Notes under the pieces: model-generated
What the model saw: the letters and a program-made list of their open reading frames with translations, nothing else
Database searches by the model: none
What the model was told of the DNA's origin: nothing
Source: a bacterium
GTDB lineage: Bacteria > Patescibacteriota > Microgenomatia > Woykebacterales > RBG-16-39-9b
DNA length: 64,000 bases
Assembly (NCBI GenBank): GCA_030704665.1
Contig: JAUYID010000009.1
Coordinates: 458,460-522,459, forward strand
Direction of reading: 5' to 3'
Program-made: the position numbers and the translations under genes
Shown here: positions 5,561 through 43,039 of the stretch, one piece after another
Position numbering within the stretch: position 1 is the first letter of the stretch
Layout: every line of letters starts with the position of its first letter

Positions 5561-6244
5561 TTAGTTTGGATTTAAAGTATCTGGAGAGTTGTTTCCCTGA
5601 GGAGTTTCCGGCTCTTGGCTGATCGTTTGGCGGATTTCAACCTTGAGTTGCTCCAAGGAATTGATGATACTGACCACTTCTTTTTGGTCTTCGGGTCGTA
5701 GGGACGCCTGAATAGTGGTGAGGTCTTTTTGGTTTTGCGTCAGAGAAGACGGTAGTTTTTTTAGAGCTGAAGCAATTTCAGGATCGTCCTTGGACTTACT
5801 TTTCGCGCTAGCCAACTCAGTACTGACTTTGGAAACTGATTTTTTTACTTCGGTCAGAGCCGCGCCAACAGCCGTATTTTTGACTACAACTGTTTTTTTC
5901 AGCTCTTCGATACGTTTGGAAGTAAGGTTCTGTTCGAGCTGGACTTTGCCTTGACTATCAGAAGAACGCAAAGCGAGGTCTTCATAGCTACGTTTCATGT
6001 GATAGAGACTGTCTCCCGGCAAAGATTGAGCGGAAAAATAAGCAGTTGTCAGAAGCAAAGTAAGGACGAAACTTCCCACCAAGCTCAAGCGGAAACTCCA
6101 GTGAAAGCGTGGGTAAATATAGTCTTCTTTTTCGAAACGAGAAGAGATGATCGTACGCAAACCAGACTTCCACGCTGGGTTTGGTTGTAAACCTTTGAAT
6201 TTCAAAAGTCGCTCTTCGATTTTTTCTAAACTTTCTACTTTCAT
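5561..6244 (-). CDS. Membrane-anchored anti-sigma factor (DUF5667-like), coupled to the ECF sigma factor
   Basis: ATGA overlap with the upstream sigma gene. Single transmembrane helix. C-terminal coiled-coil. Confidence 0.55.
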   Translation of the reverse strand: MKVESLEKIEERLLKFKGLQPNPAWKSGLRTIISSRFEKEDYIYPRFHWSFRLSLVGSFVLTLLLTTAYFSAQSLPGDSLYHMKRSYEDLALRSSDSQGKVQLEQNLTSKRIEELKKTVVVKNTAVGAALTEVKKSVSKVSTELASAKSKSKDDPEIASALKKLPSSLTQNQKDLTTIQASLRPEDQKEVVSIINSLEQLKVEIRQTISQEPETPQGNNSPDTLNPN

Positions 6245-6786
6245 AAATTAAGGGCTTTTTTCAGTTTTTTTAGGGCCCGAAACTTAAGGATTCTTAGAGA
6301 GCCCTCGGACCGGCCCAAAATCTTGCCAATTTCTTTGAAACTGTAATCTTCGATATTGCTGAGAACAAGAACTTGTCGTTCTTCTTCTGGAAGTTTGTTG
6401 ATTTCGACCAAAGTTGCTTTCAGTAAGTCCTTGTTTTCAAAGTCCTCGGTGTGGTCGAGACCTTCGAAGTCCTCAAACAAGGTCGATTCAGTGAGGCGAT
6501 CCTTGTTGCGGTAGTGGTCGATGATCAAGTTGCGCGCAATGGCAAAAAGCCAAGAGACAAAGCTAGACTTTTTTTTGAACGTGCCAAGTTTCTCAAAAGC
6601 CTTGAGAAAAATAGTTTGGGTCAGATCTTCGGCGGTTTTCCGATCTCCCACTTTGAAATAAGTAAAGCGGTAGATCTGGTCCACAAAATTGTCATAAAGT
6701 TTTCCGAAGGCTTCTGTTCTCCCATTTTGGGCAGCTGCAACCAAGTTCTCGACAGAATGCTCGGTCTTATTTCGGTTGAAGAGCAT
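6241..6786 (-). CDS. ECF-type RNA polymerase sigma-70 family factor
   Basis: Region 2 motifs LVAAAQNGRTEAFGKLYDNFVDQIYRFTYFKV...DLTQTIFLKAFEKL. Region 4 motif LPEEERQVLVLSNIEDYSFKEIGKILGRSEGSLRI. Confidence 0.8.
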   Translation of the reverse strand: MLFNRNKTEHSVENLVAAAQNGRTEAFGKLYDNFVDQIYRFTYFKVGDRKTAEDLTQTIFLKAFEKLGTFKKKSSFVSWLFAIARNLIIDHYRNKDRLTESTLFEDFEGLDHTEDFENKDLLKATLVEINKLPEEERQVLVLSNIEDYSFKEIGKILGRSEGSLRILKFRALKKLKKALNL

Positions 6787-6955
6787 AGAGCTATTGTAGC
6801 GCGTCCTGCAACCCTTGTTTCTGCAGCTATAAAGTATTGACGAGATTGTGGGTGAGTTGTTACAGGAAAGCGGACGAGAGTTTAAAAGGTTGTTTCTCCC
6901 GCCGCCTCGTTTACCGGTGAGGTGAACGATTTTTGGCGGCGGGAGTCTTCTCTCT

Positions 6956-7297
6956 TCAGACGAAACATCTGATCGCGGCAGCACTGCTTGTCACAAAGAA
7001 GAGCAGCACGACTGCGAAGGCGTCGAAGAGAGCACAGAGCAGCAAAAGGCCTACCGTGGTCTCATTGGTTCTGCGGTAGATCTTGGCGTTGTCTGTTTTG
7101 CGCAATACTGCCTCGAGTGCGTAGGTTGCGCCAATCCCAACCACGACCGCAGTGAGGATGAGGCTGACTTCGGCGACGAACCCAAGGTTGTCTACCCTTA
7201 GATCAGCCGATATGATGGCCAGCGCCCAAGCACCGAGAACGAGAGCGACGGTGCTGGCTAGAACGGCTCTCAAGGTTATATTTGAGAGAGTGGTCAT
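6956..7297 (-). CDS. Small integral membrane protein, 113 aa, three transmembrane helices
   Basis: Last gene of a four-gene minus-strand cluster of small membrane proteins. GC-rich. Confidence 0.45.
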   Translation of the reverse strand: MTTLSNITLRAVLASTVALVLGAWALAIISADLRVDNLGFVAEVSLILTAVVVGIGATYALEAVLRKTDNAKIYRRTNETTVGLLLLCALFDAFAVVLLFFVTSSAAAIRCFV

Positions 7298-7967: not shown

Positions 7968-8321
7968 ATGCCTTATTCAGTTGAAGAAACACGGGATTTT
8001 ACGGTTTATAAAGTGGACAATTTTTTTACCTTTCAGGATATGGACGCTCTTACCGAGCAGTTCGATCAATTGCTTGAGAAAGACCCGGCCGCGCGCGTCC
8101 TGCTTGATTTCTCGGCGCAAACTGGCTATGAAGAGGCAACAATCAAGGCGGCCTTCCGCCGTATCGACAAAGGTTTTCCCCGGAGCCTAAAAATGGCGAT
8201 TCTCTACGCCGGCGAAGGCGGTATTTACAAACACGTTCTAGCAATGCTGGCCGCTGCCATGCCGGAAGTAGCTAAGTTTTTCTCCAGTCGCGCCGAAGCT
8301 GAAGCTTGGCTCAAAAGTTAA
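7968..8321 (+). CDS. STAS/SpoIIAA-like small protein (putative anti-sigma-factor antagonist or DUF1987-like)
   Basis: About 117 aa with an alpha/beta pattern, VLLDFSAQTGYEEATIKAAF. Confidence 0.4.
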   Translation: MPYSVEETRDFTVYKVDNFFTFQDMDALTEQFDQLLEKDPAARVLLDFSAQTGYEEATIKAAFRRIDKGFPRSLKMAILYAGEGGIYKHVLAMLAAAMPEVAKFFSSRAEAEAWLKS

Positions 8322-8446: not shown

Positions 8447-8863
8447 TTGGCAGAGATGCCAGCAAGAAGTGCGCACGTAGTGCGGGACCTCATGGGGGAG
8501 AAGGTCGCTGGTCTCACGGCCAGTGAAACAGACCCTCTCAATGAGGCGTTTCAGCTGGTGGATGTGATTACCCATCTCAAAGAGTGGGGTTTGTCGCAAC
8601 TGACAGCGTCTGGTAAGGGCTTGCAGGTAGGTCAGTCTGAGGGGAAGACTCTCTACTTGACCGCCAATGGCCGCTTCCTCTTGCGGGTTGTGGACTTGGA
8701 AATTCCGATCGGTGTGCAACAAGCCATCGATATCTTCGGGTTCCATAGCCTCAACCACGCGATCGGTGAAGCCATCATTGCTAGCTTGCAGAATTGCCGG
8801 GCCAACAATGAGTACTGGGCAGAGCTTTCAAAGCGTGCCGAGGAACTCTTGAAGGCCATCTAG
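8447..8863 (+). CDS. Hypothetical protein, 138 aa
   Basis: AAAGGAG SD 8 nt upstream. The antisense ORF 8339..8758 is judged spurious. Confidence 0.5.
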   Translation: MAEMPARSAHVVRDLMGEKVAGLTASETDPLNEAFQLVDVITHLKEWGLSQLTASGKGLQVGQSEGKTLYLTANGRFLLRVVDLEIPIGVQQAIDIFGFHSLNHAIGEAIIASLQNCRANNEYWAELSKRAEELLKAI

Positions 8864-9082
8864 CCTGTTGTCCTCTCAACTAGATATGTAAGAGATCAGA
8901 GAAACACAAAGGCATCCTAAACTTTCCCGGGTTTTTGGTGCTCACTCTTCAGCAATGGAGAAAAACGGGAGCAAGAAAAGGAGAGGTTAAGACCAACCAC
9001 AAGAAGTGGAACTACTGGCTTAACGATCAACAGGCAGCATTAATGGAGAACATGTTAAATCTCCAGAATCATGTTGCCGAAT

Positions 9083-9117
9083 CCTAAGACAATCAAGAAA
9101 TTGGTTGGTTTAGGAAG
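9083..9117. repeat. Repeat copy A: CCTAAGACAATCA-N6-TGGTTGGTTTAGGAAG, an imperfect palindrome
   Basis: Copy B at 9687-9724 has identical arms with a 9-nt spacer. Together they flank gene 9162..9563 as direct repeats. Confidence 0.6.
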
Positions 9118-9161
9118 TTTCATGATCCAAATGTGTTCGTGGGCTTTAGCTTCTGAAAGGA

Positions 9162-9563
9162 GTGGGAATGGATCTCTATTTAATGCCGGGTGAACCTGGG
9201 TATTTGTGGACCTTTCTTTGGGAAGCACTTCCCTATTCGGTCCAAGTACGAAATGGTAAGGTCCTTCGACTGGTGGGAATAACTGACCATGTTAAACCCA
9301 AAAGGGATGGGCGTGACCATTTTATTCTCGCAAAAACACTCGCCAATCTGGACATTACTCGAGTAACAGTCAGGCTCAACGAAGCAGCCCTGGAAAAGTT
9401 TGCGGCTTTGGAAGAGCAAGCCCCTGTTTTGATGGGGTCCTTCACACTAACCTCGGTTTCTGGTTCATCGTCGGCCAGTTTGACCAGAATAGTTCGTGCA
9501 GATGGAATTCTTCCAATCACCGATGTACTTTCGGAAGCCGAAGCGCGAGACCGTTTTAGGTAA
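9162..9563 (+). CDS. Hypothetical protein, 133 aa
   Basis: AAAGGAGTGGG SD. Flanked by the two repeat copies. Confidence 0.5.
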   Translation: MGMDLYLMPGEPGYLWTFLWEALPYSVQVRNGKVLRLVGITDHVKPKRDGRDHFILAKTLANLDITRVTVRLNEAALEKFAALEEQAPVLMGSFTLTSVSGSSSASLTRIVRADGILPITDVLSEAEARDRFR

Positions 9564-9686
9564 CGACAAGGCCCGACCCCTTTTTTGCCCTCAAAATCCT
9601 GTCTCGCGAGAGAGAGGTAGTCACGGTTACCACTGGAGGTTTCCCGTCGACTCAATTAAAAAAGGTTATCTAAAAACCTCCAACTC

Positions 9687-9724
9687 CCTAAGACAATCAT
9701 TTAATTGATGGTTGGTTTAGGAAG
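9687..9724. repeat. Repeat copy B: CCTAAGACAATCA-N9-TGGTTGGTTTAGGAAG
   Basis: See copy A. Confidence 0.6.
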
Positions 9725-9728: not shown

Positions 9729-9752
9729 GCGAGCTGAAAGGCTCGTTTTTCT
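9729..9752 (+). terminator. Hairpin plus T-run terminator
   Basis: GCGAGCtgaaagGCTCG then TTTTTC. Confidence 0.4.
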
Positions 9753-9827
9753 TTGGCCAAAATGTCATTCTTGACCTGCTTGAGAATCTAGATCCTCATC
9801 TACACGAGGATGACAATCATGAAACTT

Positions 9828-10043
9828 TTAACTAACTGCTCTTGGGGCTTTTTTGGTTTGGAGGAGAAGTTTTTTTGCAGCTTTTGCAGCCAGTTCTTCT
9901 TCGACAATTTTTTGACAATCTTTGTCAGGACACACGTAGACATAGCGTACGGTGTTGACAGTATTCATGATGAGAGTTTTTTCTTTCCCGCGCACCCGTT
10001 CTTTTCCACAACGAATACATGGATTGCTGATTGTATCAGTCAT
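9828..10043 (-). CDS. Small four-cysteine zinc-ribbon protein
   Basis: CIRCGK...CPDKDC. It lies 36 nt downstream of the RRM gene, so co-transcription is likely. Confidence 0.4.
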   Translation of the reverse strand: MTDTISNPCIRCGKERVRGKEKTLIMNTVNTVRYVYVCPDKDCQKIVEEELAAKAAKKLLLQTKKAPRAVS

Positions 10044-19136: not shown

Positions 19137-20060
19137 ATGACTCTGTCCAAGCACATTACTGACTTTCTCGAGTATCTAGAAGTTGAGAAAAATGCTTCCC
19201 AACTGACAATCCGCAACTACGACCATTACCTCAAAAGATTTTTAGGTTTTGCTGGCGATGTTGATCCCAAAGACATTACCTATGAGCTGGTTCGCAAATA
19301 CCGGGTTTTTCTTGCCCGTTGGGTCGATGAGAACTCTGGTTTGCCACTAAAAAAAATCACCCAAAACTATTTCATTATCGCTTTGCGCGCTTTCCTGCGC
19401 TATTTAGCTAAACATGATATCGAAACTTTAGCTGCTGAAAAAGTTGAGCTTGGAGACAACGAGCCCAGACCAATCAAAGTTTTAGACCCAGAGCACCTAG
19501 AAAGATTGCTCTCCGCACCAAACATCGAAAAGATTGAAGGCTTGCGCGACAAAGCTATTCTCGAGGTTTTGTTTTCAACTGGATTGCGGGTCAGTGAGCT
19601 AGCCGGTCTTGATCGAGATCACGTTAACATAGATAAAGGTGAGTTTGGTGTGATTGGGAAAGGAAGAAAAGAACGAATTGTCTTTTTGTCGGATTCTTCA
19701 AAAGAATGGCTTGGTCGCTATATCGCTCAAAGAAAAGATCTCTTCAAGCCAATTTTTATTCGCTATTCAGGTAAAGAGGATCCGAGTAAAGGTGGAGAAA
19801 AAATGCGTCTGACAACCCGTAGTATTGAAAGAATCCTCGAAAAATATGTTCGGCAAGCACATATTCCGATCAAAGCGACACCCCACACCCTGCGTCACTC
19901 TTTTGCTACTGATTTGCTAATTAACGGAGCGGATATCCGCTCGGTGCAGGAAATGCTAGGGCACGCCAACATTTCCACGACTCAAATTTATACTCACATC
20001 ACCAATAAGCAATTGAAAGACGTCCACAAAGCCTTTCATTCAGGAAATAAGTTGGATTGA
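19137..20060 (+). CDS. xerC: Tyrosine site-specific recombinase XerC/XerD
   Basis: R..HTLRHSFATDLL...LGHANISTTQIYTH catalytic C-terminus. N-terminal SAM-like domain. Confidence 0.85.
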   Translation: MTLSKHITDFLEYLEVEKNASQLTIRNYDHYLKRFLGFAGDVDPKDITYELVRKYRVFLARWVDENSGLPLKKITQNYFIIALRAFLRYLAKHDIETLAAEKVELGDNEPRPIKVLDPEHLERLLSAPNIEKIEGLRDKAILEVLFSTGLRVSELAGLDRDHVNIDKGEFGVIGKGRKERIVFLSDSSKEWLGRYIAQRKDLFKPIFIRYSGKEDPSKGGEKMRLTTRSIERILEKYVRQAHIPIKATPHTLRHSFATDLLINGADIRSVQEMLGHANISTTQIYTHITNKQLKDVHKAFHSGNKLD

Positions 20061-29614: not shown

Positions 29615-30250
29615 TCAGTCTAAATTTGGTACGTCCAAGATGAGGTTGATTTTAGCCAGTTTTGGACTTGCTCTTTTGAGCAAAAACTCCTTGGTTTTCT
29701 GAATTTTCCTTAAATACTGAATGATTTGGGGCAGGCTTTTTCTTCCAAGATTGGAAAGAAGAACTTCTCTCCAGAGACTTTCCCACTCTTCTAGATCTAG
29801 GTTTTCAGCAAAGTCGATTTTTGAAGCCAAAGTCCTCCTTCCGAACTGCAAAAGCCCTTGCAACCTTTCCTCTGCGATTTCTATTTTTGGTAATCCCAGA
29901 TCAAGTTTTTGGCAGCGTGAACTTAAGGTAGCCAGGACGGAAAATTCACTTGGGGCAGTGAGAATGACTTGGCTAGTTGAAGACGGTTCCTCTAGGGTTT
30001 TGAGAAAAAGATTTTGAGCTTCATGGCTCAAATTTTGAGCCTCAAGAACAACTGCGCTGGTTAGCTTACTGTTGAAAGGTTTTTTGGCAAGTTTGCCGAG
30101 AAGGTCACGTACTTTTTCGATGCCTGGGTCTTCCTCTGTGTCGAGAATTAAAGTGTCAAACTGGCTTGAGTTCTCGCCGGCCTTTTTGGCAGCTGACTCA
30201 ACCCTTTTGTCTTGAGTTGCGCCCGAGATAAGCAAAGAGTGTTGTTGCAT
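29615..30250 (-). CDS. DNA polymerase III delta'-like subunit (short, degenerate clamp-loader AAA+ fold)
   Basis: Weak similarity pattern: LLISGATQDK...LFLKTLEEP (resembling the KTLEEP box). Confidence 0.45.
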   Translation of the reverse strand: MQQHSLLISGATQDKRVESAAKKAGENSSQFDTLILDTEEDPGIEKVRDLLGKLAKKPFNSKLTSAVVLEAQNLSHEAQNLFLKTLEEPSSTSQVILTAPSEFSVLATLSSRCQKLDLGLPKIEIAEERLQGLLQFGRRTLASKIDFAENLDLEEWESLWREVLLSNLGRKSLPQIIQYLRKIQKTKEFLLKRASPKLAKINLILDVPNLD

Positions 30251-30287
30251 CAGCTCTACATTATAACTATCAAAGGGCAGATATCAA

Positions 30288-30315
30288 TTGACATTGCTGC
30301 GGATAAGACTATAAA
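30288..30315 (+). promoter_or_regulatory. Sigma70-type promoter TTGACA-16-TATAAA upstream of pilB
   Basis: Consensus -35. Confidence 0.5.
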
Positions 30316-30338
30316 ATGAATTAACGCCTGCTACTACT

Positions 30339-32168
30339 TTGTTAGAGAAGTTTTCTGCCCCTTTCTCAAGGGCAATTCCAAGCAGGTTCGCCTTTGAAAT
30401 GGAACAAACTGACGAAAAAGGTATAGAAGACATTTTGGCCTCAAAAGGAAAGCTAACTGCCGATAAACTTTCGCTAGTGAAACTTGAGGCGATTAACACC
30501 GGCAAGCCGGTTGAAGATGTCATTTTGGAACACAAATTTGCTACTAGCGATGACATTATTGCGGCTCGTGGTGAGCTGCTTGATATCCCCTTTGTTGACC
30601 CAAACAAAAAACCAATTTCTGCTGAAGTCCTCAGTCTCCTTCCAGAACCAGTTGCTCGGCGCTACACTTTGATTCCGATAGATTTTGATAAAACCACCAA
30701 CCAACTTTCTGTTGCAATGGCTGACCCGCTTGATTTGCAGGTAACTGAGTTTGTCGAGAGGAAAAGCGGCACAATTGTTAAGCCGTTTATTTCGACCAAA
30801 GAATTGATCAATCAGGCAATAGCTGATCAATACTCCCAGAATTTGACCACAGAAGTGACGGCTGCTCTCGAAGAGCAAGGTACGGTTCAAGCCAAAGAAG
30901 AGCTTAAGGATTTGAGTAAGGTTGAAGAGGTGATCAAGGAAGCTCCGGTGGCAAAAATCGTCTCCACCCTTCTTGAGTACGCTATGAAAGGTGGGGCTAG
31001 TGATATCCACATTGAGCCACTGGAAGACAAGACGCGTGTCCGCTACCGAATTGACGGGGTTTTGCTGGAAAGACTGGTCTTGCCCCGGAAAGTTCATGAA
31101 GCTTTGGTGAGCCGAGTCAAGATCCTTTCGGCTTTGAAAATTGATGAAAAAAGAATCCCCCAGGATGGTCGTTTCACTTTTAGGCTTGGTGAGCAGTCAG
31201 TTGACTTACGTATTTCCACTTTGCCGACAGTTCACGGAGAAAAAATTGTCATGCGACTTTTGCCCAAAGCCGCTTCTGCCCCAACTCTACAGGACTTAGG
31301 TTTGCGGGGTACAGCTCTTAAAGTTTTTGAGGATAATATTCAAAGGCCACACGGAATTATTCTGATCACCGGACCAACTGGTTCGGGAAAGACAACCACT
31401 TTGTTCTCGGCCTTATCAAAAATAAATTCCCCCAAAGTTAATATTGTGACGCTGGAAGATCCAGTTGAATACCAGATTCCTGGGGTAAACCAAGTTCAAA
31501 TTAACCCCGTGGCCGGATTAACCTTTGCCTCTGGTTTGCGCAGTTTTCTGCGCCAGGATCCAAATATAATCATGGTTGGTGAGATCAGAGATGCTGAAAC
31601 TGCTGAGCTGGCGATTCAAGCGGCTCTGACGGGACACTTGGTTTTCTCGACTTTGCATACAAACTCTTCGGCTGGAGCTCTACCGCGACTTTTGGAAATG
31701 GGTAGTGAAACCTTTTTGCTGGCTTCCTCGATGAGTGCAGTTGTGGCTCAGCGGGTTTGTAGGAAAATTTGTGTTGCTTGTAAGGAAAGCTATGACCCCC
31801 CGACTCCAATCAAGGACGATCTCAAAAAAGTTTTGGGAAATTTGGTGGATGGTGTGGCTGCGGGTAAGCTTTCTCAGGAAGAAGAGGCGGACGTGGAAGA
31901 AGTTCAAGGTAAAAAGAAGCTTGTGCTCTACCGTGGCAAAGGGTGTGACAAATGTGGGGATTCAGGCTACAAAGGTCGGGTCGGAATTTTTGAGGTTTTG
32001 CCTGTGACTGATCAAATTGGGAAATTGATTTTGGAGCGCTCCCCTTCGACAAAAATTGAGGAAATGGCTGTTGATCAAGGAATGGTGACGATGAAACAGG
32101 ACGGTTATCTCAAATCAATTGAGGGTTTGACTACGATTGAGGAAGTCTTGAGGGTCGCTCAAGAATGA
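30339..32168 (+). CDS. pilB: Type IV pilus assembly ATPase PilB (GspE family) with duplicated N-terminal GSPII_E_N domains and a tetra-Cys zinc site
   Basis: Walker A GPTGSGKTTT. His box. CxxC...CDKCGDSGYKGR. Confidence 0.9.
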   Translation: MLEKFSAPFSRAIPSRFAFEMEQTDEKGIEDILASKGKLTADKLSLVKLEAINTGKPVEDVILEHKFATSDDIIAARGELLDIPFVDPNKKPISAEVLSLLPEPVARRYTLIPIDFDKTTNQLSVAMADPLDLQVTEFVERKSGTIVKPFISTKELINQAIADQYSQNLTTEVTAALEEQGTVQAKEELKDLSKVEEVIKEAPVAKIVSTLLEYAMKGGASDIHIEPLEDKTRVRYRIDGVLLERLVLPRKVHEALVSRVKILSALKIDEKRIPQDGRFTFRLGEQSVDLRISTLPTVHGEKIVMRLLPKAASAPTLQDLGLRGTALKVFEDNIQRPHGIILITGPTGSGKTTTLFSALSKINSPKVNIVTLEDPVEYQIPGVNQVQINPVAGLTFASGLRSFLRQDPNIIMVGEIRDAETAELAIQAALTGHLVFSTLHTNSSAGALPRLLEMGSETFLLASSMSAVVAQRVCRKICVACKESYDPPTPIKDDLKKVLGNLVDGVAAGKLSQEEEADVEEVQGKKKLVLYRGKGCDKCGDSGYKGRVGIFEVLPVTDQIGKLILERSPSTKIEEMAVDQGMVTMKQDGYLKSIEGLTTIEEVLRVAQE

Positions 32169-32265
32169 TTTTAGTTTGCGACAAGGAGTTAATTATATGC
32201 TGCTAGAGCACCATATAATTTCAAAACAAGTAAATTTATAATTAGAAAGAAGGAATTTTGAAATT

Positions 32266-33333
32266 ATGGAAATTCAAGAATTATTAGAAGAAGCACTACG
32301 TCGCGGGGCCTCAGATGTCCACCTGATGGTGGGTGCCTACCCAACTTTGCGAATTGATGGGGCTTTGGTACCAGTCACCAAGGGACCGAACCCAACACCA
32401 GAGGTGGTTGAAAAACTGGTCCTTTCTTTGACTTCGCCAGAGCAGAAGGAGCTGCTTTTAACCAATAAAGAAATTGATTTTTCTTTTGCTCTAGGAGAAA
32501 TCGCCCGTTTTCGTGTCAACGCTTTTTATCAAAAAGGCTACTTGTCAGCCGCTCTGCGTTTGATTCCCTCCAAAATTCCGAGCCTTTCGGAACTGCACCT
32601 GCCGAAAGTTTTGGGGAATTTTTCAAAATTGCGCCAGGGTTTTATTTTGATGACTGGTCCGACAGGACACGGAAAATCGACTTCGATCGCCTCGATTATC
32701 AATGAAATCAATGAAAACCGCTCTGCCCATATCGTGACGATTGAGGATCCGATTGAGTACGTTTACCCGTCTAGGAAATCCCTGATCGCCCAGAGGGAAA
32801 TGCATTTGGATACACACAGTTGGGAAATTGCACTCCGCTCTGTTTTACGTGAGGATCCTGATGTAGTTTTGATCGGAGAAATGCGAGACTACGAAACAAT
32901 TGAGGCGGCGCTAACTATTGCTGAAACTGGACACCTAGTTTTTGCCACCTTGCACACCAACTCAGCCGCTCAAAGTATTGATCGTATCGTTGGGGTCTTT
33001 CCGGAAAATCAACAAGAACAGGTCCGCCAACAACTTTCTCAAGTCTTGGAGGCGATTGTTTCAATGAGGCTGATACCAGGTGCAAGCAGTGGCCGTTGGC
33101 CGGCGGTAGAGATTTTGCTTGCCAACTCCGCGGTCCGCAACGTCATCCGAGAAGGAAAGTCGCATTTGATCGACAATATCATCCAGACCTCAACTGGAAT
33201 TGGGATGGTGATGATGGATAGTTCTTTGGCTGATCTAGTCCGCTCCAACAAGATTACTTTGGAAGTAGCCCAAAGCTTTAGTTTGCGACCCGAAGAGTTG
33301 ATGAGGGAGCTAAAAAAAGTGACGAAAGAATGA
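32266..33333 (+). CDS. pilT: Twitching-motility retraction ATPase PilT
   Basis: Walker A GPTGHGKST. AIRNLIRE-like motif. Confidence 0.9.
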   Translation: MEIQELLEEALRRGASDVHLMVGAYPTLRIDGALVPVTKGPNPTPEVVEKLVLSLTSPEQKELLLTNKEIDFSFALGEIARFRVNAFYQKGYLSAALRLIPSKIPSLSELHLPKVLGNFSKLRQGFILMTGPTGHGKSTSIASIINEINENRSAHIVTIEDPIEYVYPSRKSLIAQREMHLDTHSWEIALRSVLREDPDVVLIGEMRDYETIEAALTIAETGHLVFATLHTNSAAQSIDRIVGVFPENQQEQVRQQLSQVLEAIVSMRLIPGASSGRWPAVEILLANSAVRNVIREGKSHLIDNIIQTSTGIGMVMMDSSLADLVRSNKITLEVAQSFSLRPEELMRELKKVTKE

Positions 33334-33341
33334 AAATCTAA

Positions 33342-34538
33342 ATGGAACAATATACGTACTTAGTTAAAGACGACAAAGGCCTAACCAAACAAGGCATTAT
33401 TGAGGCAGCTGATCCTCGGGCTGCTAGTGCGATTCTCCATGAACGTGGTTTTGTCGTCATCAGCATCGAGGAAAAAAGCAAAGCCCTCGCTTTTAGCTTC
33501 TTCAAAGGGGTTAGTCTTTCCGTGCAGGCCAACTTTACTCGTCAACTGGCGACAATGATCACTTCGGGACTGCCTTTGAGTGATTCTTTAGTGGTACTGA
33601 AAAAACAAACTGAAAATCAAAAAATGCTAGAAATTATCACCAATATTGCCGATGATATCCAGGCTGGTAGTACTTTTTCTGCTGCTCTGGCCAAACATGC
33701 CGACGTTTTCTCAGCCGCCTACATAAATATTGTCAAAGCTGGTGAAGCCTCAGGTACTCTGGACAAAGTTTTGCAGGACCTTGCCGACAATCTTGAGAAA
33801 GAAAGAGAGTTTCAGGGTAAAGTAAAAGGAGCCTTTGTTTATCCAGTGATTATTTTGATCGCTATGGCTCTGGTGACGGGCATAATTATGATTTTTGTGG
33901 TGCCAAAGCTGACCGATCTTTATGTTGGTTTGAATATTTCTCTTCCTCTACCGACTTTAATTTTGATTGGACTGAGCAAATTTTTGGCTACCTTTTGGTG
34001 GCTTTTGATTCTGGTTATTGTTGGTTTGGTGATTGCCTACCGGCGTTATCGCAGAACTCCTCAGGGAGCTCTAGTCATCGACCGGATTTTGATGCGTCTG
34101 CCGGTAATGGGTAAGCTGAACCGAGAAACCTCGTTGACCGAGCTGACACGGACTTTGGGTGCACTAGTAGCCGCCGGAGTGCCGATTTTGGAGGCCCTAA
34201 AAATTTCTGGTGAAGTGGCTACCAACGCGATTCACCGCCAAGCCGTTAAGCGCTCGGCGACTTTGGTTGAAAAAGGAGCTGCTCTTTCCAAAGCGATGGC
34301 CCAAGAACCCGAATTTCCGGCGATTTTGCCCCAAATGGTGGCTGTGGGTGAAGAAACAGGGAAAATGGATGATGTTCTCGGAAAACTGTCTCACTATTTC
34401 GAAGTTGAAGTTGAACAGCAAGTCAAAAATCTGACCACTGCTCTAGAGCCAATCATTATGGTGGTACTGGGTATCATGGTGGGGTTGCTTGTGATTTCGA
34501 TTATTCTGCCAATTTACTCGATTACCAGTGCCTTTTAA
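33342..34538 (+). CDS. pilC: Type IV pilus platform protein PilC (GspF family)
   Basis: Duplicated T2SSF domains. Three transmembrane segments. Confidence 0.9.
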   Translation: MEQYTYLVKDDKGLTKQGIIEAADPRAASAILHERGFVVISIEEKSKALAFSFFKGVSLSVQANFTRQLATMITSGLPLSDSLVVLKKQTENQKMLEIITNIADDIQAGSTFSAALAKHADVFSAAYINIVKAGEASGTLDKVLQDLADNLEKEREFQGKVKGAFVYPVIILIAMALVTGIIMIFVVPKLTDLYVGLNISLPLPTLILIGLSKFLATFWWLLILVIVGLVIAYRRYRRTPQGALVIDRILMRLPVMGKLNRETSLTELTRTLGALVAAGVPILEALKISGEVATNAIHRQAVKRSATLVEKGAALSKAMAQEPEFPAILPQMVAVGEETGKMDDVLGKLSHYFEVEVEQQVKNLTTALEPIIMVVLGIMVGLLVISIILPIYSITSAF

Positions 34539-35091
34539 AATGGTCCTCCAAAGAGAAAGAGGCTTTTCACTACTGATAATTTTTGTCTTGCTTTTTGTTG
34601 TTGTTCTGCTTGGTTCAGTCGGTATTTATTTGATTAATCCTTTGGAAAAGCTGCGTGAAGACCGTGATCGGAAAAGAATTTCTCAACTCGATGAGTTGCA
34701 AAAGGCAGTCAAACTTTATTTGCGCAATAACCCCTCGGAAGCGAGACTCTGTGACAACTGTAGTCTCGGTCAAACAGTTTTTGCGCACCAGGGGGTCAGA
34801 ATCGGTGCCAGCGAGGCTTTGGTGATAAACTCCCAATCTGTGGGTGGCCCGGGCTGGGTACCAATTGATCTATCTCTGAACGCTGGTATTGGCAGGACTC
34901 CCCTACTTACTCTGCCGATAGATCCGCTCAACAAAGACCCGTTTGTTTATACCTTTACTCCCGGGCAGGATGGTAAGTTTAAAATTACCGCCAGTTTTGA
35001 AAGTAAGGCTTTGCTAGCAAAAATGGCGACTGACGGCGGAACCAGAGTCGATCGTTATGAGATCGGAACCGATTTATCTTTGGTTCCCTAA
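34528..35091 (+). CDS. Pilin-like protein with a non-canonical N-terminus (GFSLLII, no Glu at +5)
   Basis: Class-III-like signal. Pilin helix DELQKAVKLYLRNN. Confidence 0.5.
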   Translation: MPFKMVLQRERGFSLLIIFVLLFVVVLLGSVGIYLINPLEKLREDRDRKRISQLDELQKAVKLYLRNNPSEARLCDNCSLGQTVFAHQGVRIGASEALVINSQSVGGPGWVPIDLSLNAGIGRTPLLTLPIDPLNKDPFVYTFTPGQDGKFKITASFESKALLAKMATDGGTRVDRYEIGTDLSLVP

Positions 35092-35093
35092 AA

Positions 35094-35993
35094 ATGATGA
35101 CTACAGAAATGCTTTTACTACCCTTTCTTTTTGTTTTTGGTGCTTGTATTGGCTCTTTTGTCAACGCTTTCAACTGGCGCTATACCGAAAACAAAAGCTT
35201 GCTTGGCCGTTCGCAGTGCCCCAAATGTGGTCACAAACTTTCTGCCTGGGAGCTAGTTCCTCTTGTTAGTTACTTGCTGCAGAAAGGTCGATGTTTGGCC
35301 TGCAAAAAGAAGATCTCGCCGCGCTACCCTTTGGTCGAGCTAATTTTTGCGCTAAGCTTTGTTTTTGCTGGACTTTGGCTTCTCCCCCGTCTCAACCCAG
35401 ACTTTCTCCTGCCCGTTAATGTCGGCTTTGCCATCTATACTTTCTTCATTGTTTCGGTTTTTCTCGCCCTCGCCGCCTCTGACTTGTCGTGGGGAATTAT
35501 TCCTGACCGGATTGTTTTGCCAGCGATTGCTTTCACTTTTATCTACAAAAGCCTTGATATTGCTTACCGAGCAACGACAACTTACTTTACTCTCAAAAAT
35601 GACACTGGTCTGGGACATTATTTATTGGAGAGTGGTTATTTTGGCAATTTAGTCAAGGACGATCTTTTGGGCTTGGCCGCCGCCCTTCTGCTTGGAGCGG
35701 GCATTGCCGGCTTCTTTTTGTTGTTAATTTTCTTGACCCGCGGTCGAGCCATGGGCCTGGGAGACGTCAAACTTGGTTTTCTGCTCGGCCTTGCTCTTGG
35801 TTTTCCGGCAGCTCTGGTCGGGCTAGCACTAGCTTTCTTGACAGGTGCGCTAGCCTCTGTTATGCTTATTTTAGCTAGCAAAAAGGGCTTGAAAGAGACG
35901 ATTCCTTTTGGTCCATTTTTAGCGCTAGGAGGTCTAGTTGGGCTCTTTTATGGTGACCAGTTGCTAAACCTTTACTTGAGTTTAATGAAATGA
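35094..35993 (+). CDS. pilD: Prepilin peptidase (A24 family) PilD
   Basis: N-terminal CxxC...CxxC zinc motif. Eight transmembrane helices. Catalytic Asp pair region. Confidence 0.85.
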   Translation: MMTTEMLLLPFLFVFGACIGSFVNAFNWRYTENKSLLGRSQCPKCGHKLSAWELVPLVSYLLQKGRCLACKKKISPRYPLVELIFALSFVFAGLWLLPRLNPDFLLPVNVGFAIYTFFIVSVFLALAASDLSWGIIPDRIVLPAIAFTFIYKSLDIAYRATTTYFTLKNDTGLGHYLLESGYFGNLVKDDLLGLAAALLLGAGIAGFFLLLIFLTRGRAMGLGDVKLGFLLGLALGFPAALVGLALAFLTGALASVMLILASKKGLKETIPFGPFLALGGLVGLFYGDQLLNLYLSLMK

Positions 35994-36062
35994 AAATATC
36001 CTGCCCGAATTTTCCCAAGATTTCCCAAATTGAAAAAATTGGATACTTGCTGTTGAAAGGGG

Positions 36063-36608
36063 GTGAGAAACGTAATGATAGATAAACTACGTTCTCATCT
36101 TGAAGGTATGAGGGGTGCAAAGAAAGACAAAGGATTCACCTTGGTCGAGCTTTTGGTCGTCATCGCTATCATCGCAGTTTTGGTTTTGATCGTCATCGTG
36201 GCCATCAATCCAATCCAAAGACTAGCTGACGCGGCTGACAGACGGGCTTCGGCCAACGTTCGTTCGACCGGGACCCTGATTCAGACTTGTATCACTCAAC
36301 GAGCACCAACGACTAGCTCAGCAGTACTTTATTCCGCGACCGCAGGCACCGGATGTGCTGATATCGCTGCTGGAGGAACTCTTTCGACCTACGGTACTCC
36401 TGCTAATGGAGTGACCATTGAAGCTAACGCTGGTACTACAGATATTTGTGTTTCCCAGCAAGGGGCGACTAGTGGTGCGACTCCGCACTGGTACAACTAT
36501 CGAGCCTCAACCAACGGTACTCCGACTGGTGGGGTTTCGACAGCTGCTGGTTCTGTCCAGGAGCAATCCGGAACCATGCCAGGTAGTGTTGCGGGACGCT
36601 GTCCGTAA
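36063..36608 (+). CDS. pilA: Type IV pilin (candidate major pilin)
   Basis: Leader ...KKDKG, then FTLVELLVVIAIIAVL with Glu at +5. Confidence 0.8.
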   Translation: MRNVMIDKLRSHLEGMRGAKKDKGFTLVELLVVIAIIAVLVLIVIVAINPIQRLADAADRRASANVRSTGTLIQTCITQRAPTTSSAVLYSATAGTGCADIAAGGTLSTYGTPANGVTIEANAGTTDICVSQQGATSGATPHWYNYRASTNGTPTGGVSTAAGSVQEQSGTMPGSVAGRCP

Positions 36609-36689
36609 TCTTGACAACTAGTTTGGTTTTGGGTAACACCCAAACTAGTGGCTATAAGCAGGAGAGGTTTGTAGTCAGCAGTTTTCAAA

Positions 36690-37334
36690 ATGAAAACAAA
36701 ATTTTCTTTACTCAAAAGACTCTTTCAAGGTAGTGACAATGCAAAAGGCTTCAATTTGCGCAAGCAAAATAGTCCCGCGTTTCAACGTGGGTTTACCCTA
36801 GTTGAACTGCTTGTTGTCATTGCGGTGATTGGAATTCTGGTTACTCTCGTCATCGTCGCCGTGGATCCAGTTCAAGTCATTCGTAAATCGCAGGATACAC
36901 GCCGCCGCAGTGATTTACAGGCGATGCGAGTGGCCCTGCAGCAGTTTTACAATGACTACAAGTATTACCCGAGAAACAATAACGAAGGTAAGCTTTACTG
37001 CTGGAGTCTTTCCGGTTCCGACGGAACTCTCTTGAGTTTTACTGGCACGACCGCCTGGAGCTCGAATGGAAGCTCGAGCTGCACGACCTCGGACACCTCC
37101 TATATCAAAGCTTTGCCGAAGAACCCTACTTTTACCACGGGTGGCTACTATTACCAAGTTTTTGATGGTCCCTACCCGTATCAAAGCTACCGTCTGTTGA
37201 CCAACCTTTCCTACCCGAGCACTGATGATACTAATTCTTACACGAAATGTGGGGCGATCAACACTGGAACTAGTGTCATCACGGTCAACAATCCCTCGGT
37301 ACCAACCGTCAATTTTGCTCTTTGTAGTGACTAG
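36690..37334 (+). CDS. Type IV pilin paralog
   Basis: ...QRG, then FTLVELLVVIAVIGIL. Confidence 0.8.
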   Translation: MKTKFSLLKRLFQGSDNAKGFNLRKQNSPAFQRGFTLVELLVVIAVIGILVTLVIVAVDPVQVIRKSQDTRRRSDLQAMRVALQQFYNDYKYYPRNNNEGKLYCWSLSGSDGTLLSFTGTTAWSSNGSSSCTTSDTSYIKALPKNPTFTTGGYYYQVFDGPYPYQSYRLLTNLSYPSTDDTNSYTKCGAINTGTSVITVNNPSVPTVNFALCSD

Positions 37335-37343
37335 GATTTTCCC

Positions 37344-37865
37344 ATGCTGACTCATCAAAAAGAAAAAGGTCTTGGTTTGATTGGGATTATAATTTTGCTT
37401 GCCCTGATTTTTGCAGCCCTCAACGTTTACTCCTACTACAACCCAAGTTTTTCTCTGTCCAAGTACTCACTTTTTAACTTTATCCGAGCTAAAAAAGATG
37501 AGACTAGAAAAAACGATTTGAAGAGACTACAAGAAGCCCTGCAGCGCTACTATGACAAAAACGGCAACACTTACCCAGGAACGATTGGGGTTTGCGGTCG
37601 AATTGTTTCCGTCCTGCATAGTGAAGTCATCACTGTTTTGAAACCTTATTTTCCGGAGAACGAATTTCCCGCCGACCCTTCTTTTAGCGGCACTTACAAA
37701 GACTATTTTTATACCAAACTTCCCAACGAGGGTTATGCCTTGATGGCGGTGCTGGAAATTCCACCGACTATTGCTGCGGATGAAAAAGATAGATACAATT
37801 TTGTTCGTTGCTATGATTGGCCCGGGAACGGGGTCTACAACTACCGGCTCGACAACCCTCAGTAA
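37344..37865 (+). CDS. Pilin-like protein with a degenerate prepilin signal
   Basis: EKG, then LGLIGIIILLALIF. Pilin-helix NDLKRLQEALQRYYDKNGNTYP. Confidence 0.45.
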   Translation: MLTHQKEKGLGLIGIIILLALIFAALNVYSYYNPSFSLSKYSLFNFIRAKKDETRKNDLKRLQEALQRYYDKNGNTYPGTIGVCGRIVSVLHSEVITVLKPYFPENEFPADPSFSGTYKDYFYTKLPNEGYALMAVLEIPPTIAADEKDRYNFVRCYDWPGNGVYNYRLDNPQ

Positions 37866-37908
37866 GAGATTTGAAAGAGTCAGGGAATTTTGTTACTCTT
37901 AATATTAG

Positions 37909-38823
37909 ATGAATCTGCCCTCCCCGACGAGCTTGAAATTTAACTATAAAAAAAGTTTTCCTGAGTTTGGGTTTACTTTGCTCTCAGCAAAGCAGTCGCT
38001 TGCGCAGCAAGGGATTACTTTTCCTAATGTGAAGAGGAAAAGCAGTCGAGCCGAAGCGGGGTTTAATTTTCTGAGTGGAGCGAAGAAAAATAGCCCAGAG
38101 ACTCAGCGAGGGTTTACCCTGGTCGAACTCCTTGTAGTGGTGGCGATCATCGGTATTCTGACCTCGGTTGCGGTGGCCTCTTACAACAGTTTCAACCGTA
38201 GCCAGACGGTCAAAATTGCTGCTCTCAACATTAAATCAGATCTACGGGCTGCCAAAACCGATTCCATTGCCGGGCGCAAGGACGCTACCTGTCGGGCCGA
38301 CTCTTTTAACAACGACACCGGCTCTGTTGGAGCCGATGGTAAAGATGATTACACTTTGATTGGCTATTACGTTACTTTTAGTACCTCAAACCTTTCTGCA
38401 GACCGCCCCAACCAAAACTATTATGTTATTAACCAACGCTGCAAACTTGACGGTGTTATCACTCCGAACCCACCGGTTACTCCACAGTACCGCGCCGGGA
38501 CAGATGTAATCAAGGCTCTGCCAGTTGGTTCACGTTTGCAGTCTATTGATCTGCTAAATTCAGCCGGAGGGGCTTGTTCGATTGGTAATATAGCTTTAAG
38601 CCTTGAATTTTTGACGGTCAACAAAACCGATACCACTATTGCCGGCAACGTTGGTTTTTACAACTTCGTTTTGACAACAAGCGCACTAAGCACCTTTCCC
38701 CCTCCGTCGGGGAATATTTTTACTTGTGCTAAGGTTCGCTTAGTACTATCTGGAAACGCAACCAACGTTGTTTATTACGTTTACATTGAAAATAACGGTA
38801 ATATTTCCGAGGCAAGAAAATAA
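37909..38823 (+). CDS. Pilin-like protein with an unusually long leader of about 67 aa
   Basis: ...ETQRG, then FTLVELLVVVAIIGIL. The start could be a downstream non-ATG codon. Confidence 0.65.
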   Translation: MNLPSPTSLKFNYKKSFPEFGFTLLSAKQSLAQQGITFPNVKRKSSRAEAGFNFLSGAKKNSPETQRGFTLVELLVVVAIIGILTSVAVASYNSFNRSQTVKIAALNIKSDLRAAKTDSIAGRKDATCRADSFNNDTGSVGADGKDDYTLIGYYVTFSTSNLSADRPNQNYYVINQRCKLDGVITPNPPVTPQYRAGTDVIKALPVGSRLQSIDLLNSAGGACSIGNIALSLEFLTVNKTDTTIAGNVGFYNFVLTTSALSTFPPPSGNIFTCAKVRLVLSGNATNVVYYVYIENNGNISEARK

Positions 38824-39482
38824 TGGATTTAAAAATCTTTAGAAAACAAAAAGGGCAAACCTTGATCGAAGTGGTGGTGGCGATTGCCTTGGCTTTAATT
38901 ATTATCACTGCGTTGGTTAGTTTGACTTCTCGTACCAACCAAAATGCGAACTCCTCAAAAATTGCTGAGGTGGCTGCCAAATTTGCTCAAGAAGGACAGG
39001 AGGCGGTCAGACAAATTAAACTTAACGATGGGGATATCCGCAACTCTGGTGTTGCCGGGGTCTCAAAGTGGAGCGACCTTTACAAGGCCGGTGTCGCTGG
39101 GACACTCAACCCTCTGCGTCTTGATCTAGTTCAACCCCTCGGTACTCACGGTGGGACTCTGACTCCTGCTTGTGGCGCCGTTGTTTGGTGTTTGGACGGA
39201 GCAAGTTTGGGAACTGCTGAAGCTGGGAGCACAACCGCCCCGGGAACTGGAGGGATTGTAGTCAGCCGTCAAGTAGAAATTTATGATATTGCCGGTGCCT
39301 CTGGAGTCAACGGTTGTTTCCAAAATAGCGGCTCAGGAGGCGCAGTCCCGTTACCTGGTTTCACGGCTCCCCTAGTGTTAAATGCCAATGAGGTTAAAAG
39401 TGTTTTGGTCCTGGTCACTTGGACTGATCAGTCAGGTACCCACAAAATTACCTTGTATGATTGTGTCACCTCAAGAATATGA
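38823..39482 (+). CDS. Minor pilin or pseudopilin (PilV-like)
   Basis: QKG, then QTLIEVVVAIALALII. Confidence 0.65.
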   Translation: MDLKIFRKQKGQTLIEVVVAIALALIIITALVSLTSRTNQNANSSKIAEVAAKFAQEGQEAVRQIKLNDGDIRNSGVAGVSKWSDLYKAGVAGTLNPLRLDLVQPLGTHGGTLTPACGAVVWCLDGASLGTAEAGSTTAPGTGGIVVSRQVEIYDIAGASGVNGCFQNSGSGGAVPLPGFTAPLVLNANEVKSVLVLVTWTDQSGTHKITLYDCVTSRI

Positions 39483-40252
39483 AAAAAACTGCACTGGCAT
39501 TAAATAAAGAAAACGGGTTCAATTTTTCGAGTTTTGAGAGAAAAAATAAACCTTCACTACGTTCAGGACTGCATTTTGCAGAGGCAAAAAGTAGTCCCAC
39601 CGAAGGTGGGTTTACACTGATTGAGATGCTGGTCGTGACGGCAATCCTCGGCTTGTTGCTGGGTATTGCTGCCCAAGTTTTTATCACCATTTTGCGCAAC
39701 CAAAACAAAACTAACTTAACTACCGAAATCCGCCAAAACGCCGCTCTGGTGATTGACACCTTCGAAAGAGATGCTCGTAGCGCGATACAGGCAGAAACAA
39801 TGTGTCCGGGCGGAATCAGTGCTTCTCCACCTTGCTCACTAGATACTAGCAATGCGAGCTTAAGTTTCCTTCTTTCCTCGGCTGGTTACACCGGAGCGGG
39901 TCTTACTTCTTACGGAGTGCGCTTTACTTATCGAAGTGGAGATCAAGTTTACTGGCTTTGTTTGACGGAGGATGCTTCTGTCAGCCCACGCCAGAACGGG
40001 CGCTTCATGCGTGGAAGCAACCCTTCGGCTACTTCCCTAGCAGTAGCACTGACCAATACGAGTAGTACTGACGGAGTCAGCATTACCACTCCTTGCATTA
40101 TCAGTGTTGAAGATACCAGTCAAGTTCATCTTTTGAAACTTGATTTTCAAGCACGAGAAGGTGCCGATGCTCACGTCAATCAAGGCAACAAAACCGACCT
40201 GTCCCAAACCGACGTGCGTTTCACCACCACAGTTGGTTTGAGGTCGTACTAA
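39461..40252 (+). CDS. Pilin-like protein with a long leader
   Basis: ...PTEGG, then FTLIEMLVVTAILGLL. Confidence 0.65.
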   Translation: MCHLKNMKKTALALNKENGFNFSSFERKNKPSLRSGLHFAEAKSSPTEGGFTLIEMLVVTAILGLLLGIAAQVFITILRNQNKTNLTTEIRQNAALVIDTFERDARSAIQAETMCPGGISASPPCSLDTSNASLSFLLSSAGYTGAGLTSYGVRFTYRSGDQVYWLCLTEDASVSPRQNGRFMRGSNPSATSLAVALTNTSSTDGVSITTPCIISVEDTSQVHLLKLDFQAREGADAHVNQGNKTDLSQTDVRFTTTVGLRSY

Positions 40253-40313
40253 ATTGCCAGAGAGCTTGACAGAGACAAGCCAACTTCATTACAATTTTTA
40301 GAGAAAGATCATT

Positions 40314-41348: not shown

Positions 41349-41424
41349 GTGCACGAAACTCTTGCGCACTAGAAGCAAAATTTGTTAAACTTAATTTTAG
41401 TAATTAATGGCTAATTATTGAACT

Positions 41425-42459: not shown

Positions 42460-42460
42460 A

Positions 42461-43039
42461 ATGGACTCTATCAATCTTCTTCCGCAAGTTGCGGAAACTG
42501 AAATTAAAAAGGATGTTTACAAGAGAAAGATCAGCGTGGCTGCTGTTGCCTCACTTTTGGCAGTGGCGGGGATCATCATTGCCCTTTTTGGCTATCAGCT
42601 TTTCTTGAGCGCTCGGGATCGAACTCTGACTGCGGAAACCACCGAAAAGACAGCCCAAATTACTTCTCCAGAAAACGCCGCACTTGAAGTAAAACAAAGA
42701 GCTTTGATTGGTAAGCTGGAAGCAATCACAGGTTATTTGAACAGCAACAAGTCAACTGCTCGCGCTTTTAAGCAAATTATTACTCTAGCTTCTTCAGGAC
42801 AAGTCAGCCTCTCTAGAGTTGAACTCAGTAGTGCCGGAGCCATTACTGTGGCCGGTTTTGCTTCGACTTCTTCAAACTTAGGACGTTTTTTTGACAACCT
42901 AACTGACGAGAAGGCTACAGTAAGTTTGGAAAAGGTTGTGGCTAGCTCAGTTTCTTTGACAAGCAATAGCTACCAATTTACGGTTCGGCTCAATTACACC
43001 AAACCAGGATTGCTTGACAGAGAGGAGAAAACCCCATGA
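42461..43039 (+). CDS. pilN: Type IV pilus assembly protein PilN
   Basis: INLLPQ start. Single transmembrane helix. 2-nt gap after pilM. Confidence 0.7.
   Translation: MDSINLLPQVAETEIKKDVYKRKISVAAVASLLAVAGIIIALFGYQLFLSARDRTLTAETTEKTAQITSPENAALEVKQRALIGKLEAITGYLNSNKSTARAFKQIITLASSGQVSLSRVELSSAGAITVAGFASTSSNLGRFFDNLTDEKATVSLEKVVASSVSLTSNSYQFTVRLNYTKPGLLDREEKTP

Follow-up and report, generated by a model that had tools for sequence, protein, structure and literature searches.

A strand-specific hairpin repeated around an orphan gene in a Woykebacterales bacterium, and its possible place at the head of a 5′ leader module

The window analyzed here is a 64,000-nucleotide (nt) stretch of contig JAUYID010000009.1, from a bacterium of the Woykebacterales (Patescibacteriota). 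The element of interest, designated H, is a short imperfect palindrome present in the window as two copies, A and B, on either side of a gene for an orphan protein of 131 amino acids (aa). Arms of 13 nt and 16 nt are common to both copies, and the spacer between them measures 6 nt in copy A and 9 nt in copy B. Each arm occurs exactly twice in the 64 kb, both times on the + strand and in the same orientation as the bracketed gene, and the identity between the copies (a common stretch of 35–38 nt) ends sharply at the edges of H. A looser pattern, CCTAAG ... YTTAGGAA, matched copies A and B only; 0.02 matches were expected per shuffled window, and none of 100 shuffled windows held two. A sequence-only reading of this DNA had reported two near-identical imperfect-palindromic direct repeats around one small gene, with arms that are partial reverse complements. 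Sequence, pattern and covariance searches agree on the repeats, the arms are complementary at 10 of 13 positions as DNA, and the pair is confirmed as real and not a product of chance. Unfiltered searches with covariance models of two and of four copies found no third H in the 64-kb window or in ~6 kb of added flank; the search for copies thus covered ~70 kb of the source genome, or ~7% of the 938-kb contig. Coordinates of the principal features are collected in Table 1.

Table 1. Principal features discussed in the text, with positions counted from the first letter of the window.
Feature	Position	Strand	Sequence or description	Basis
Hairpin H, copy A	9083-9117 (9082-9117 including foot)	+	CCTAAGACAATCA-AGAAAT-TGGTTGGTTTAGGAAG	
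Leader A	9118-9167	+		alignment with two L035 leaders
Orphan gene	9168-9563	+	131 aa, hypothetical protein Q8P13_02745 (unclassified metagenome-assembled genome)	annotation, homologue
Conserved element (CE)	9590-9682	+	93 nt, non-coding	alignment to L035 548-641, consensus fold
Hairpin H, copy B	9687-9724 (9684-9724 including extended foot)	+	CCTAAGACAATCA-TTTAATTGA-TGGTTGGTTTAGGAAG	
Intrinsic terminator	9729-9755	+	GCGAGC-UGAA-AGGCUCGU then UUUUUCUUU	terminator scan, fold, alignment
Partial inverted copy (right arm of H and start of leader)	9816-9836	-	GTTAGTTAA--AAGTTTCATGAT versus 9103-9126 GTTGGTTTAGGAAGTTTCATGAT	
XerC/D-type recombinase gene	19137-20060		SAM-like and Phage_integrase domains, ordinary architecture	

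The bracketed gene most likely starts at the ATG at 9168, with the sequence AAGGAG 5 nt upstream; the public annotation begins the gene there too. The sequence-only reading had placed the gene at 9162 to 9563, from a GTG; a coding gene between the repeats was upheld, and its start was moved. A word-indexed search of 5.8 billion cluster representatives (~15 billion proteins) with the 131-aa protein matched only the query itself. A single true homologue, P0003 (133 aa, E 4.5e-14), came from an exhaustive HMMER search over 1.84 billion representatives; used in turn as a query of the indexed protein search, P0003 also matched nothing besides itself. The two proteins are 47% identical and their coding sequences 59% identical. 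Identity by codon position was 66/69/41%, which marks a real coding gene in which synonymous sites are near saturation. The 131-aa protein had no match in Pfam, PHROGs, PADLOC or PDB, and AlphaFold models from two runs were unusable, with a predicted local distance difference test (pLDDT) score of 36–37. Isoelectric points (pI) of 6.7 and 4.7 make the two proteins neutral to acidic.

The gene for P0003 was found on a 753-bp groundwater contig, L035, from the Hainich H43 sample ERZ1292626, and there too it is bracketed by two hairpins of the H design, A′ (CCCAAGAC-UUUCAA-AAAG-UUGGAA-AU-CUUAGG) and B′ (CCUAAG-CC-UUUCAGU-UAA-ACUGGAA-AU-CUUAGG). Recurrence in related genomes had been put forward as a test of the repeat, and the pair is indeed present in the only related locus known. 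Copies A and B of the window are identical at all 29 arm-and-tail positions, and the L035 copies have two differences in the 13-nt left arm; between the two genomes, copies of H are 64–69% identical.

Read as RNA of the + strand, the arms of H pair at 12 of 13 positions, counting two G·U pairs. Predicted folding energies for this strand were -15.1 kcal/mol for copy A (z -2.7) and -16.5 kcal/mol for copy B (z -2.5). The - strand folded poorly, no better than shuffled sequences (z -0.3 and -1.2), because the two positions that form G·U pairs on the + strand are C·A on the other. Core stems are found in both copies of the window: a lower stem, CCUAA/UUAGG, and an upper stem, CAAUCA/UGGUUG, which contains a U·G wobble. 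In copy A the lower stem is UCCUAA/UUAGGA, followed by a 2×2 internal loop (or a G·U pair and an A·G mismatch), the upper stem CAAUCAA/UUGGUUG with its U·G wobble, a GAAA loop and, on the 3′ side, the tail AAG. The upper stem of copy B is longer (CAAUCAUU/GAUGGUUG, loop UAAUU), and its foot has two additional pairs (CU...AG). In both copies bases of the spacer lengthen the stem, an A-U pair closing the GAAA loop in copy A and a U-A pair and a U·G pair closing the UAAUU loop in copy B. Predicted folding of both untranslated regions around the gene also beat shuffled sequences on the + strand (z -3.1 and -4.3).

Comparison of the four copies shows that the pairing of H is conserved while its sequence changes. 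The 13-nt arms are spaced 6 and 9 nt apart in the window and 6 and 7 nt apart in L035, and the extra spacer bases pair although the spacing varies. When pairs were counted over the four copies, 91% of cells were paired; sliding the partners by 1–3 columns reduced this to 25–62% (50–62% for a slide of one column). Two upper-stem pairs change from A-U to U-A between the loci, altering the sequence of the upper stem with pairing kept, the loop-closing pair changes from A-U to G-C, and one lower-stem pair changes from G·U to G-C. In all, three pairs are changed on both sides. An extended foot pair covaries as well, being C-G in window copy B and U-A in L035, and the U·G wobble is invariant in all four copies. 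Compensatory changes and strand asymmetry are the marks of a cis-acting RNA stem-loop, and both were found, the former across four copies from two loci that are not independent samples and the latter as measured in the window. Variable spacing in which the added bases pair, together with a wobble that exists on one strand, argues for a folded single strand and not for a duplex site of a rigid dimer or the core site of a tyrosine recombinase.

Downstream of copy A, the leader motif CATGATCCAAATGTG (9121-9135) forms a second hairpin, hp2, and the ribosome-binding site AAGGAG lies at 9157-9162. The motif CATGAYCMAHATGWG of this leader is shared with the L035 leaders and is unique in the window. 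In L035 the repeat itself runs on 3′ of H as GGAAAAAGCAUGACCAAYAUGAGGUGRUGCUUU, as far as a ribosome-binding site with its start codon; it reaches ~45 nt past H into the leader. The leader of copy A′ leads to the ATG of the P0003 gene and that of copy B′ to the GTG of a second gene, which is cut by the contig end. (The B′ leader, at L035 645-753, is nearly identical to the A′ leader, and the second gene, with its GTG at 734, reads VGFTTP....) In a consensus fold of the three leaders, H is followed directly by hp2, which ends in a U-run; at one position of hp2 an A is replaced by G, with pairing preserved as a + strand wobble. The distance from the foot of H to the start codon is 53 nt for copy A and 52 and 56 nt for the L035 copies. 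Because three of the four copies stand 52–56 nt before a start codon and are followed by hp2 and a ribosome-binding site, H can be read as the head of a repeated 5′ leader.

Copy B of the window precedes a terminator and not a gene. It lies 123 nt past the stop codon of the orphan gene, and an intrinsic terminator follows directly after the common AAG, in the place held by hp2 in the other three copies. No + strand gene follows this terminator; past it are convergent genes on the - strand, encoding a 71-aa zinc-ribbon-like protein and an RRM protein. The right arm of H and the start of the leader recur as a partial inverted copy that overlaps the stop codon of the 71-aa gene. This inverted copy has a 12-nt perfect core, for which the expected number of matches is ~0.001, and its local alignment score of 25 (shuffled sequences, 15 ± 2.2) was reached by 2 of 1000 shuffles. 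This fragment may be what is left of a rearrangement in which a gene once served by copy B was lost. The 71-aa protein (9828-10043, - strand, beside the RRM gene) is cysteine-rich and gave a weak match to phrog_4550, a phage family of unknown function (E 1.9e-4).

Between the orphan gene and copy B lies a non-coding element, CE, that is 81% identical to its L035 counterpart (31 of 33 positions in the first block); the coding sequence and the bases right after the stop codon are each only 59% identical. Its variable part is an AT-rich segment of 17–18 nt with 44% identity. The consensus fold contains a hairpin, CCUGUCUC-GCGA-GAGAGAGG, with a GNRA loop. A second stem has 8 pairs and a bulged C in the window (AGUCACGG/CCGUCGACU) and 9 pairs in L035 (AGUCGAAGG/CCUUUGACU), with one C-G pair replaced by A-U. 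A third stem of 9 bp, UGGAGGUUU/AAACCUCCA (GGAGGUUU/AAACCUCC), is invariant and is predicted to form a pseudoknot with the second. CE is single-copy in the window. An alternative view of its conserved blocks is as a promoter whose end lies 10 nt upstream of H, T[T/C]GACT-18 nt-TAAAAA; this reading is weak because the -10 box lacks the final T and the site was unreported by the promoter scan. CE may represent a new structured RNA or serve as a promoter/operator block. A small open reading frame in CE behind GGAGG was considered and rejected, as the two loci share no conserved start codon.

Searches outside the two loci gave little. Scans of metagenomes with a near-exact H hairpin and with the two conserved CE blocks returned no match. 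With Rfam 15, only the four tRNAs of the window passed gathering thresholds, and the locus and L035 gave only chance-level matches at E ≤ 10. A loose palindrome pattern matched 33 times in a collection of genomes other than the source genome; these matches came from unrelated taxa and were all ordinary near-perfect hairpins, with at least three mismatches in the six free positions. Comparison of H and CE with a viral collection, and by BLAST with phages and plasmids, produced nothing above chance.

Our preferred explanation, which we hold with no more than even confidence, is that H is a transcribed regulatory stem-loop forming the head of a repeated 5′ leader module and acting as a folded single strand. 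The strand-specific stem-loop would most likely work as RNA of the + strand transcript. A module would consist of H, hp2 with its U-run, a ribosome-binding site and a start codon 52–56 nt after the foot of H, and the orphan gene and the downstream CE would lie between two such modules. In L035 the second module would drive the next gene; in the window only H of this module would remain, fused to a strong intrinsic terminator. With the second module truncated in this way, the 5′ untranslated region would contain copy A, and the same transcript would carry copy B at its 3′ end (or copy B would be on a short separate RNA). Near-identity of the copies within a genome and their paired divergence between genomes point to a shared, co-evolving and sequence-specific partner, with gene conversion as an alternative. 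Candidates for such a partner would be a regulator that binds RNA and a factor for RNA processing or stability; either would exert coordinated control over the flanked gene and its neighbour, at the level of stability, processing, termination or translation. We infer, then, that H is transcribed, that a factor binds it and that the binding has an effect; our best guess at its function is a shared binding, stability or processing hairpin.

Several points weigh against this explanation. Transcription through H on the + strand is assumed, and promoter scans of the window and of L035 revealed no convincing sigma-70 promoter upstream of any copy. In L035 a terminator-like hairpin, read by eye and unreported by the terminator scan, is situated directly before A′; if it does terminate, transcription there could begin downstream of H, and H could act in DNA form. 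A co-evolving dimeric DNA-binding protein would likewise be expected to leave symmetric changes in the two arms, and the apparent covariation comes from two loci only, with four non-independent copies. The pI values of the flanked protein and its homologue are atypical for an RNA binder, and the count of two copies of H comes from the ~7% of the contig given above.

Some of these same observations would fit H as an imperfect palindrome in duplex DNA that serves a dimeric transcription factor as its binding site, immediately before weak promoters in the leaders, a possibility that we consider unlikely. H keeps a fixed distance to the start codons, and a co-evolving dimer would account for the symmetric arm changes between genomes. 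Copy A′ comes right after the hairpin that was read by eye as terminator-like (and that the scan did not report), so that a promoter upstream of H would have little space. Weak -35/-10-like hexamers can be picked out by eye in the leader (ATGAYC ... TTTAAA/TTGAAT), but scans found no promoter in either leader. Candidate promoters read by eye, T[T/C]GACT-18-TAAAAA upstream of H (in CE) and ATGAYC-16/17-TTTAAA-like downstream of it, were set aside as weak and unsupported by the scan. The geometry is also unfavourable: half-site spacings of 6, 9, 6 and 7 nt would rotate the half-sites by up to ~100 degrees relative to each other. The asymmetry TCA...TGG, corresponding to the U·G wobble, is kept in all four copies, and the loop-closing and foot pairs covary outside any half-site. 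Moreover, there is no gene downstream of window copy B for an operator to serve. The sequence-only reading had offered repeated operator sites for a dimeric regulator in two promoters as its second, alternative interpretation. The part of it that survives is that of repeated regulatory sites before genes, as seen in L035 at 52–56 nt upstream; the duplex operator for a dimer is disfavoured by the spacers, the wobble and the strand asymmetry.

Gene conversion, named above as an alternative source of the identity between copies within a genome, is at home in a different arrangement, that of the promoter early stem-loops (PeSLs) of T4-type phages, in which orphan genes lie between direct repeats that carry expression signals (PMC2839356). 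Under this interpretation, H and its leader would form an insulator and promoter unit, and homologous recombination between copies would insert, delete or circularise the orphan gene; we judge it distinctly unlikely. Like H, PeSLs are repeated intergenic stem-loops with expression signals that end at the ribosome-binding site and start codon, around orphan genes as direct repeats (PMC2839356, PMC4122927). The genes adjoining the locus are also orphans, and the nearby partial inverted copy hints at a past rearrangement. PeSLs, unlike H, have strong sigma-70 promoters and GC-rich terminator stems, number dozens per phage genome and have been shown to recombine. H is present as two copies in ~70 kb of a cellular genome and not as a dense array, and has no clear promoter (no strong sigma-70 consensus; the leader scans were negative and the hexamers seen by eye are weak). 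Its stem has neither GC-rich nor terminator character, the common stretch in the window is only 35–38 nt, and neither phage context nor a match in phage, viral or plasmid collections was found. That the hairpins still bracket the same gene at a divergence that has reached saturation argues for a stable unit.

The U-run hairpin that directly follows all four copies, in the case of window copy B a strong terminator, raises the matter of antitermination. The bglG gene is flanked by two terminators, and the layout at our locus is comparable, with a small gene between two near-identical units of hairpin plus terminator. The flanked protein, or another factor, could bind H in nascent RNA and modulate termination at the next hairpin; H and the flanked protein have diverged together, yet we regard the mechanism as improbable. 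H and the next hairpin are predicted to form together and are not mutually exclusive, their overlap being at most 3–4 weak A-U/G-U pairs. In three copies hp2 is a weak terminator, unreported by the scan, and beyond the window terminator there are only convergent genes. The flanked protein has no CAT, PRD or ANTAR domain and is not basic; a CAT domain was sought with Pfam and matched in neither the flanked protein nor the upstream 138-aa protein, RRM being the only match among the neighbours. The ribonucleic antiterminator (RAT) hairpin and its mechanism have been described (PMC12591593). RAT hairpins of BglG, SacY and LicT (PMC12591593) resemble H in being short and imperfect, with an internal loop, placed in a leader before a U-run hairpin and possibly present twice around a small gene; H differs in having no CAT/PRD or ANTAR protein, no evident alternative-fold switch, no similarity to RAT sequences and no Rfam match.

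A comparison can also be made with repetitive extragenic palindromic (REP) elements and bacterial interspersed mosaic elements (BIMEs), which like H are imperfect palindromes of 35–40 nt in intergenic transcribed positions and could protect the 3′ end of an mRNA. REPs occur in tens to hundreds per genome; of H two copies are present in the ~70 kb searched (~7% of the contig), tied to one gene and at a fixed distance to start codons.

The main interpretation in the sequence-only reading was that H represents XerC/D dif-like sites in a dif module or in a cassette of an integrative mobile element exploiting Xer (IMEX). More broadly, H could mark sites for site-specific or hairpin-directed recombination (Xer/dif-, attC- or IS200/IS605-end-like) that bound a mobile one-gene cassette, which we consider very improbable. 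The resemblance is easily stated: direct repeats flank one gene, a tyrosine recombinase gene is present 10 kb away, and the similarity between the window and L035 extends from the 5′ foot of copy A to the 3′ foot of copy B. Neutral DNA, however, is saturated between the window and L035, and these edges therefore carry little weight. H shares with Xer/dif and IMEX sites its imperfect palindromes, the 6-nt centre of copy A and the occurrence of two copies around one gene. The core of a dif site consists of two ~11-bp arms around a centre of fixed length (6–8 bp), with matching centres in partner sites, and the consensus XerD arm is TTATGTTAAAT. In H the arms are 13 and not 11 nt, the centre is 6, 7 or 9 nt, and partner centres are mismatched in length and sequence (6 versus 9 nt in the window, 6 versus 7 nt in L035). 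Since tyrosine recombinases need matching overlap regions in partner sites, the dif reading is unsupported. Nor is a dif consensus recognizable: 28-mers at both hairpins were less than 19/28 identical to all five reference dif sites, and the best matches in the window were elsewhere and weak. The Xer gene of the window stands 10 kb from H, beside genes such as SHMT, and the proteins scanned included no second recombinase. The dif and IMEX interpretation accordingly finds no support, the spacers of H being unequal, pairing into its stem and belonging to a sequence without similarity to dif.

Being a strand-specific imperfect hairpin, H also has the look of attC sites and of the ends of IS200/IS605 elements, both of which are strand-specific imperfect hairpins. 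Like H, attC sites are two-stem hairpins with an unpaired middle that lie between single-gene units, and the CCTAA...TTAGG core of H resembles common attC ends. An attC site is built from an R″ RYYYAAC and an R′ GTTRRRY core site, is ~55–141 bp long, has extrahelical bases and is accompanied by an integron integrase or by further attC sites in an array; of H there are only two copies in the ~70 kb searched. The feet of H (CCTAAG ... (C/T)TTAGG) have AAG/CTT where attC needs AAC/GTT, and at 32–38 nt, against at least 55 nt, H is half the minimum length; it has a symmetric 2×2 internal loop and no extrahelical bases, and its repeat continues into the leader. Elements of the IS200/IS605 type carry TnpA (Y1_Tnp) and/or TnpB between subterminal hairpins and are usually multi-copy. 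The unit described here is single, and the flanked protein has no HxH motif and no Pfam match; neither a HUH transposase nor an integron integrase was found nearby. The continuation of the L035 repeat ~45 nt beyond H and the fixed distance to the start codon likewise count against recombination sites, and a single unit whose protein family has two members in ~15 billion proteins gives no sign of mobility. We hold it equally doubtful that H, leader, orphan gene, CE and H form a hairpin-bounded cassette moved via folded single-stranded ends by an unrecognised recombinase, as a miniature attC- or IS200-like unit with CE as its cis-acting RNA or DNA core. Template and variable repeats of a diversity-generating retroelement (the copies differ by loop replacement and not at adenines), CRISPR-like repeats (the spacing is 600 nt, with two copies only) and type III toxin-antitoxin repeats (the copies are not tandem) were dismissed.

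Several observations concern the surroundings of the locus. The gene immediately upstream (8456-8863, 135–138 aa) is also a singleton, for which the indexed protein search returned no homologue. It is preceded by a gene for a SpoIIAA/STAS-like protein (7968-8321) and, at ~5561-6984, by genes for an extracytoplasmic function (ECF) sigma factor and a DUF5667 protein. The singleton and such neighbours place the locus in a patch of lineage-specific small genes. For the 220-nt region between the singleton and copy A (8864-9082), the + strand folded better than shuffled sequences (z -3.1), and a separate hairpin, GUUAAG...CUUAAC, is present at ~8987-9025; this region was considered as a second CE and rejected, as it has no similarity to CE. 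A 50-aa open reading frame with a TTG start (8935-9087), whose stop codon falls within hairpin A, in its left arm, matched no family and probably does not represent a gene. Farther away, four tRNA genes (Val-GAC, Leu-GAG, Trp-CCA and Leu-TAG) are clustered on the - strand at 59795-62844. GC skew shifts from mostly positive to mostly negative around 36–40 kb (within the region ~30000-46000). No dif-like sequence (at least 21/28 identical to the reference dif sites) was present anywhere in the window, including at this change, which may therefore reflect gene orientation only.

The combined motif of hairpin and leader and the adjoining conserved element have not been described previously, although their general kind is familiar, and they are known from two loci. 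A pair of sites that looks like dif or IMEX is better explained at this locus by a pair of leader hairpins. Note that the reach of the finding is small, since the gene family and both RNA elements come from two loci in all public data searched. If our explanation is correct, an undescribed cis-acting RNA hairpin would stand beside an undescribed, strongly conserved and structured non-coding element in an uncultivated bacterium with a small genome, a kind of host in which gene regulation is almost unstudied. A lineage-specific orphan gene that is accompanied by conserved RNA signals would then offer a concrete handle on how such genes are controlled.

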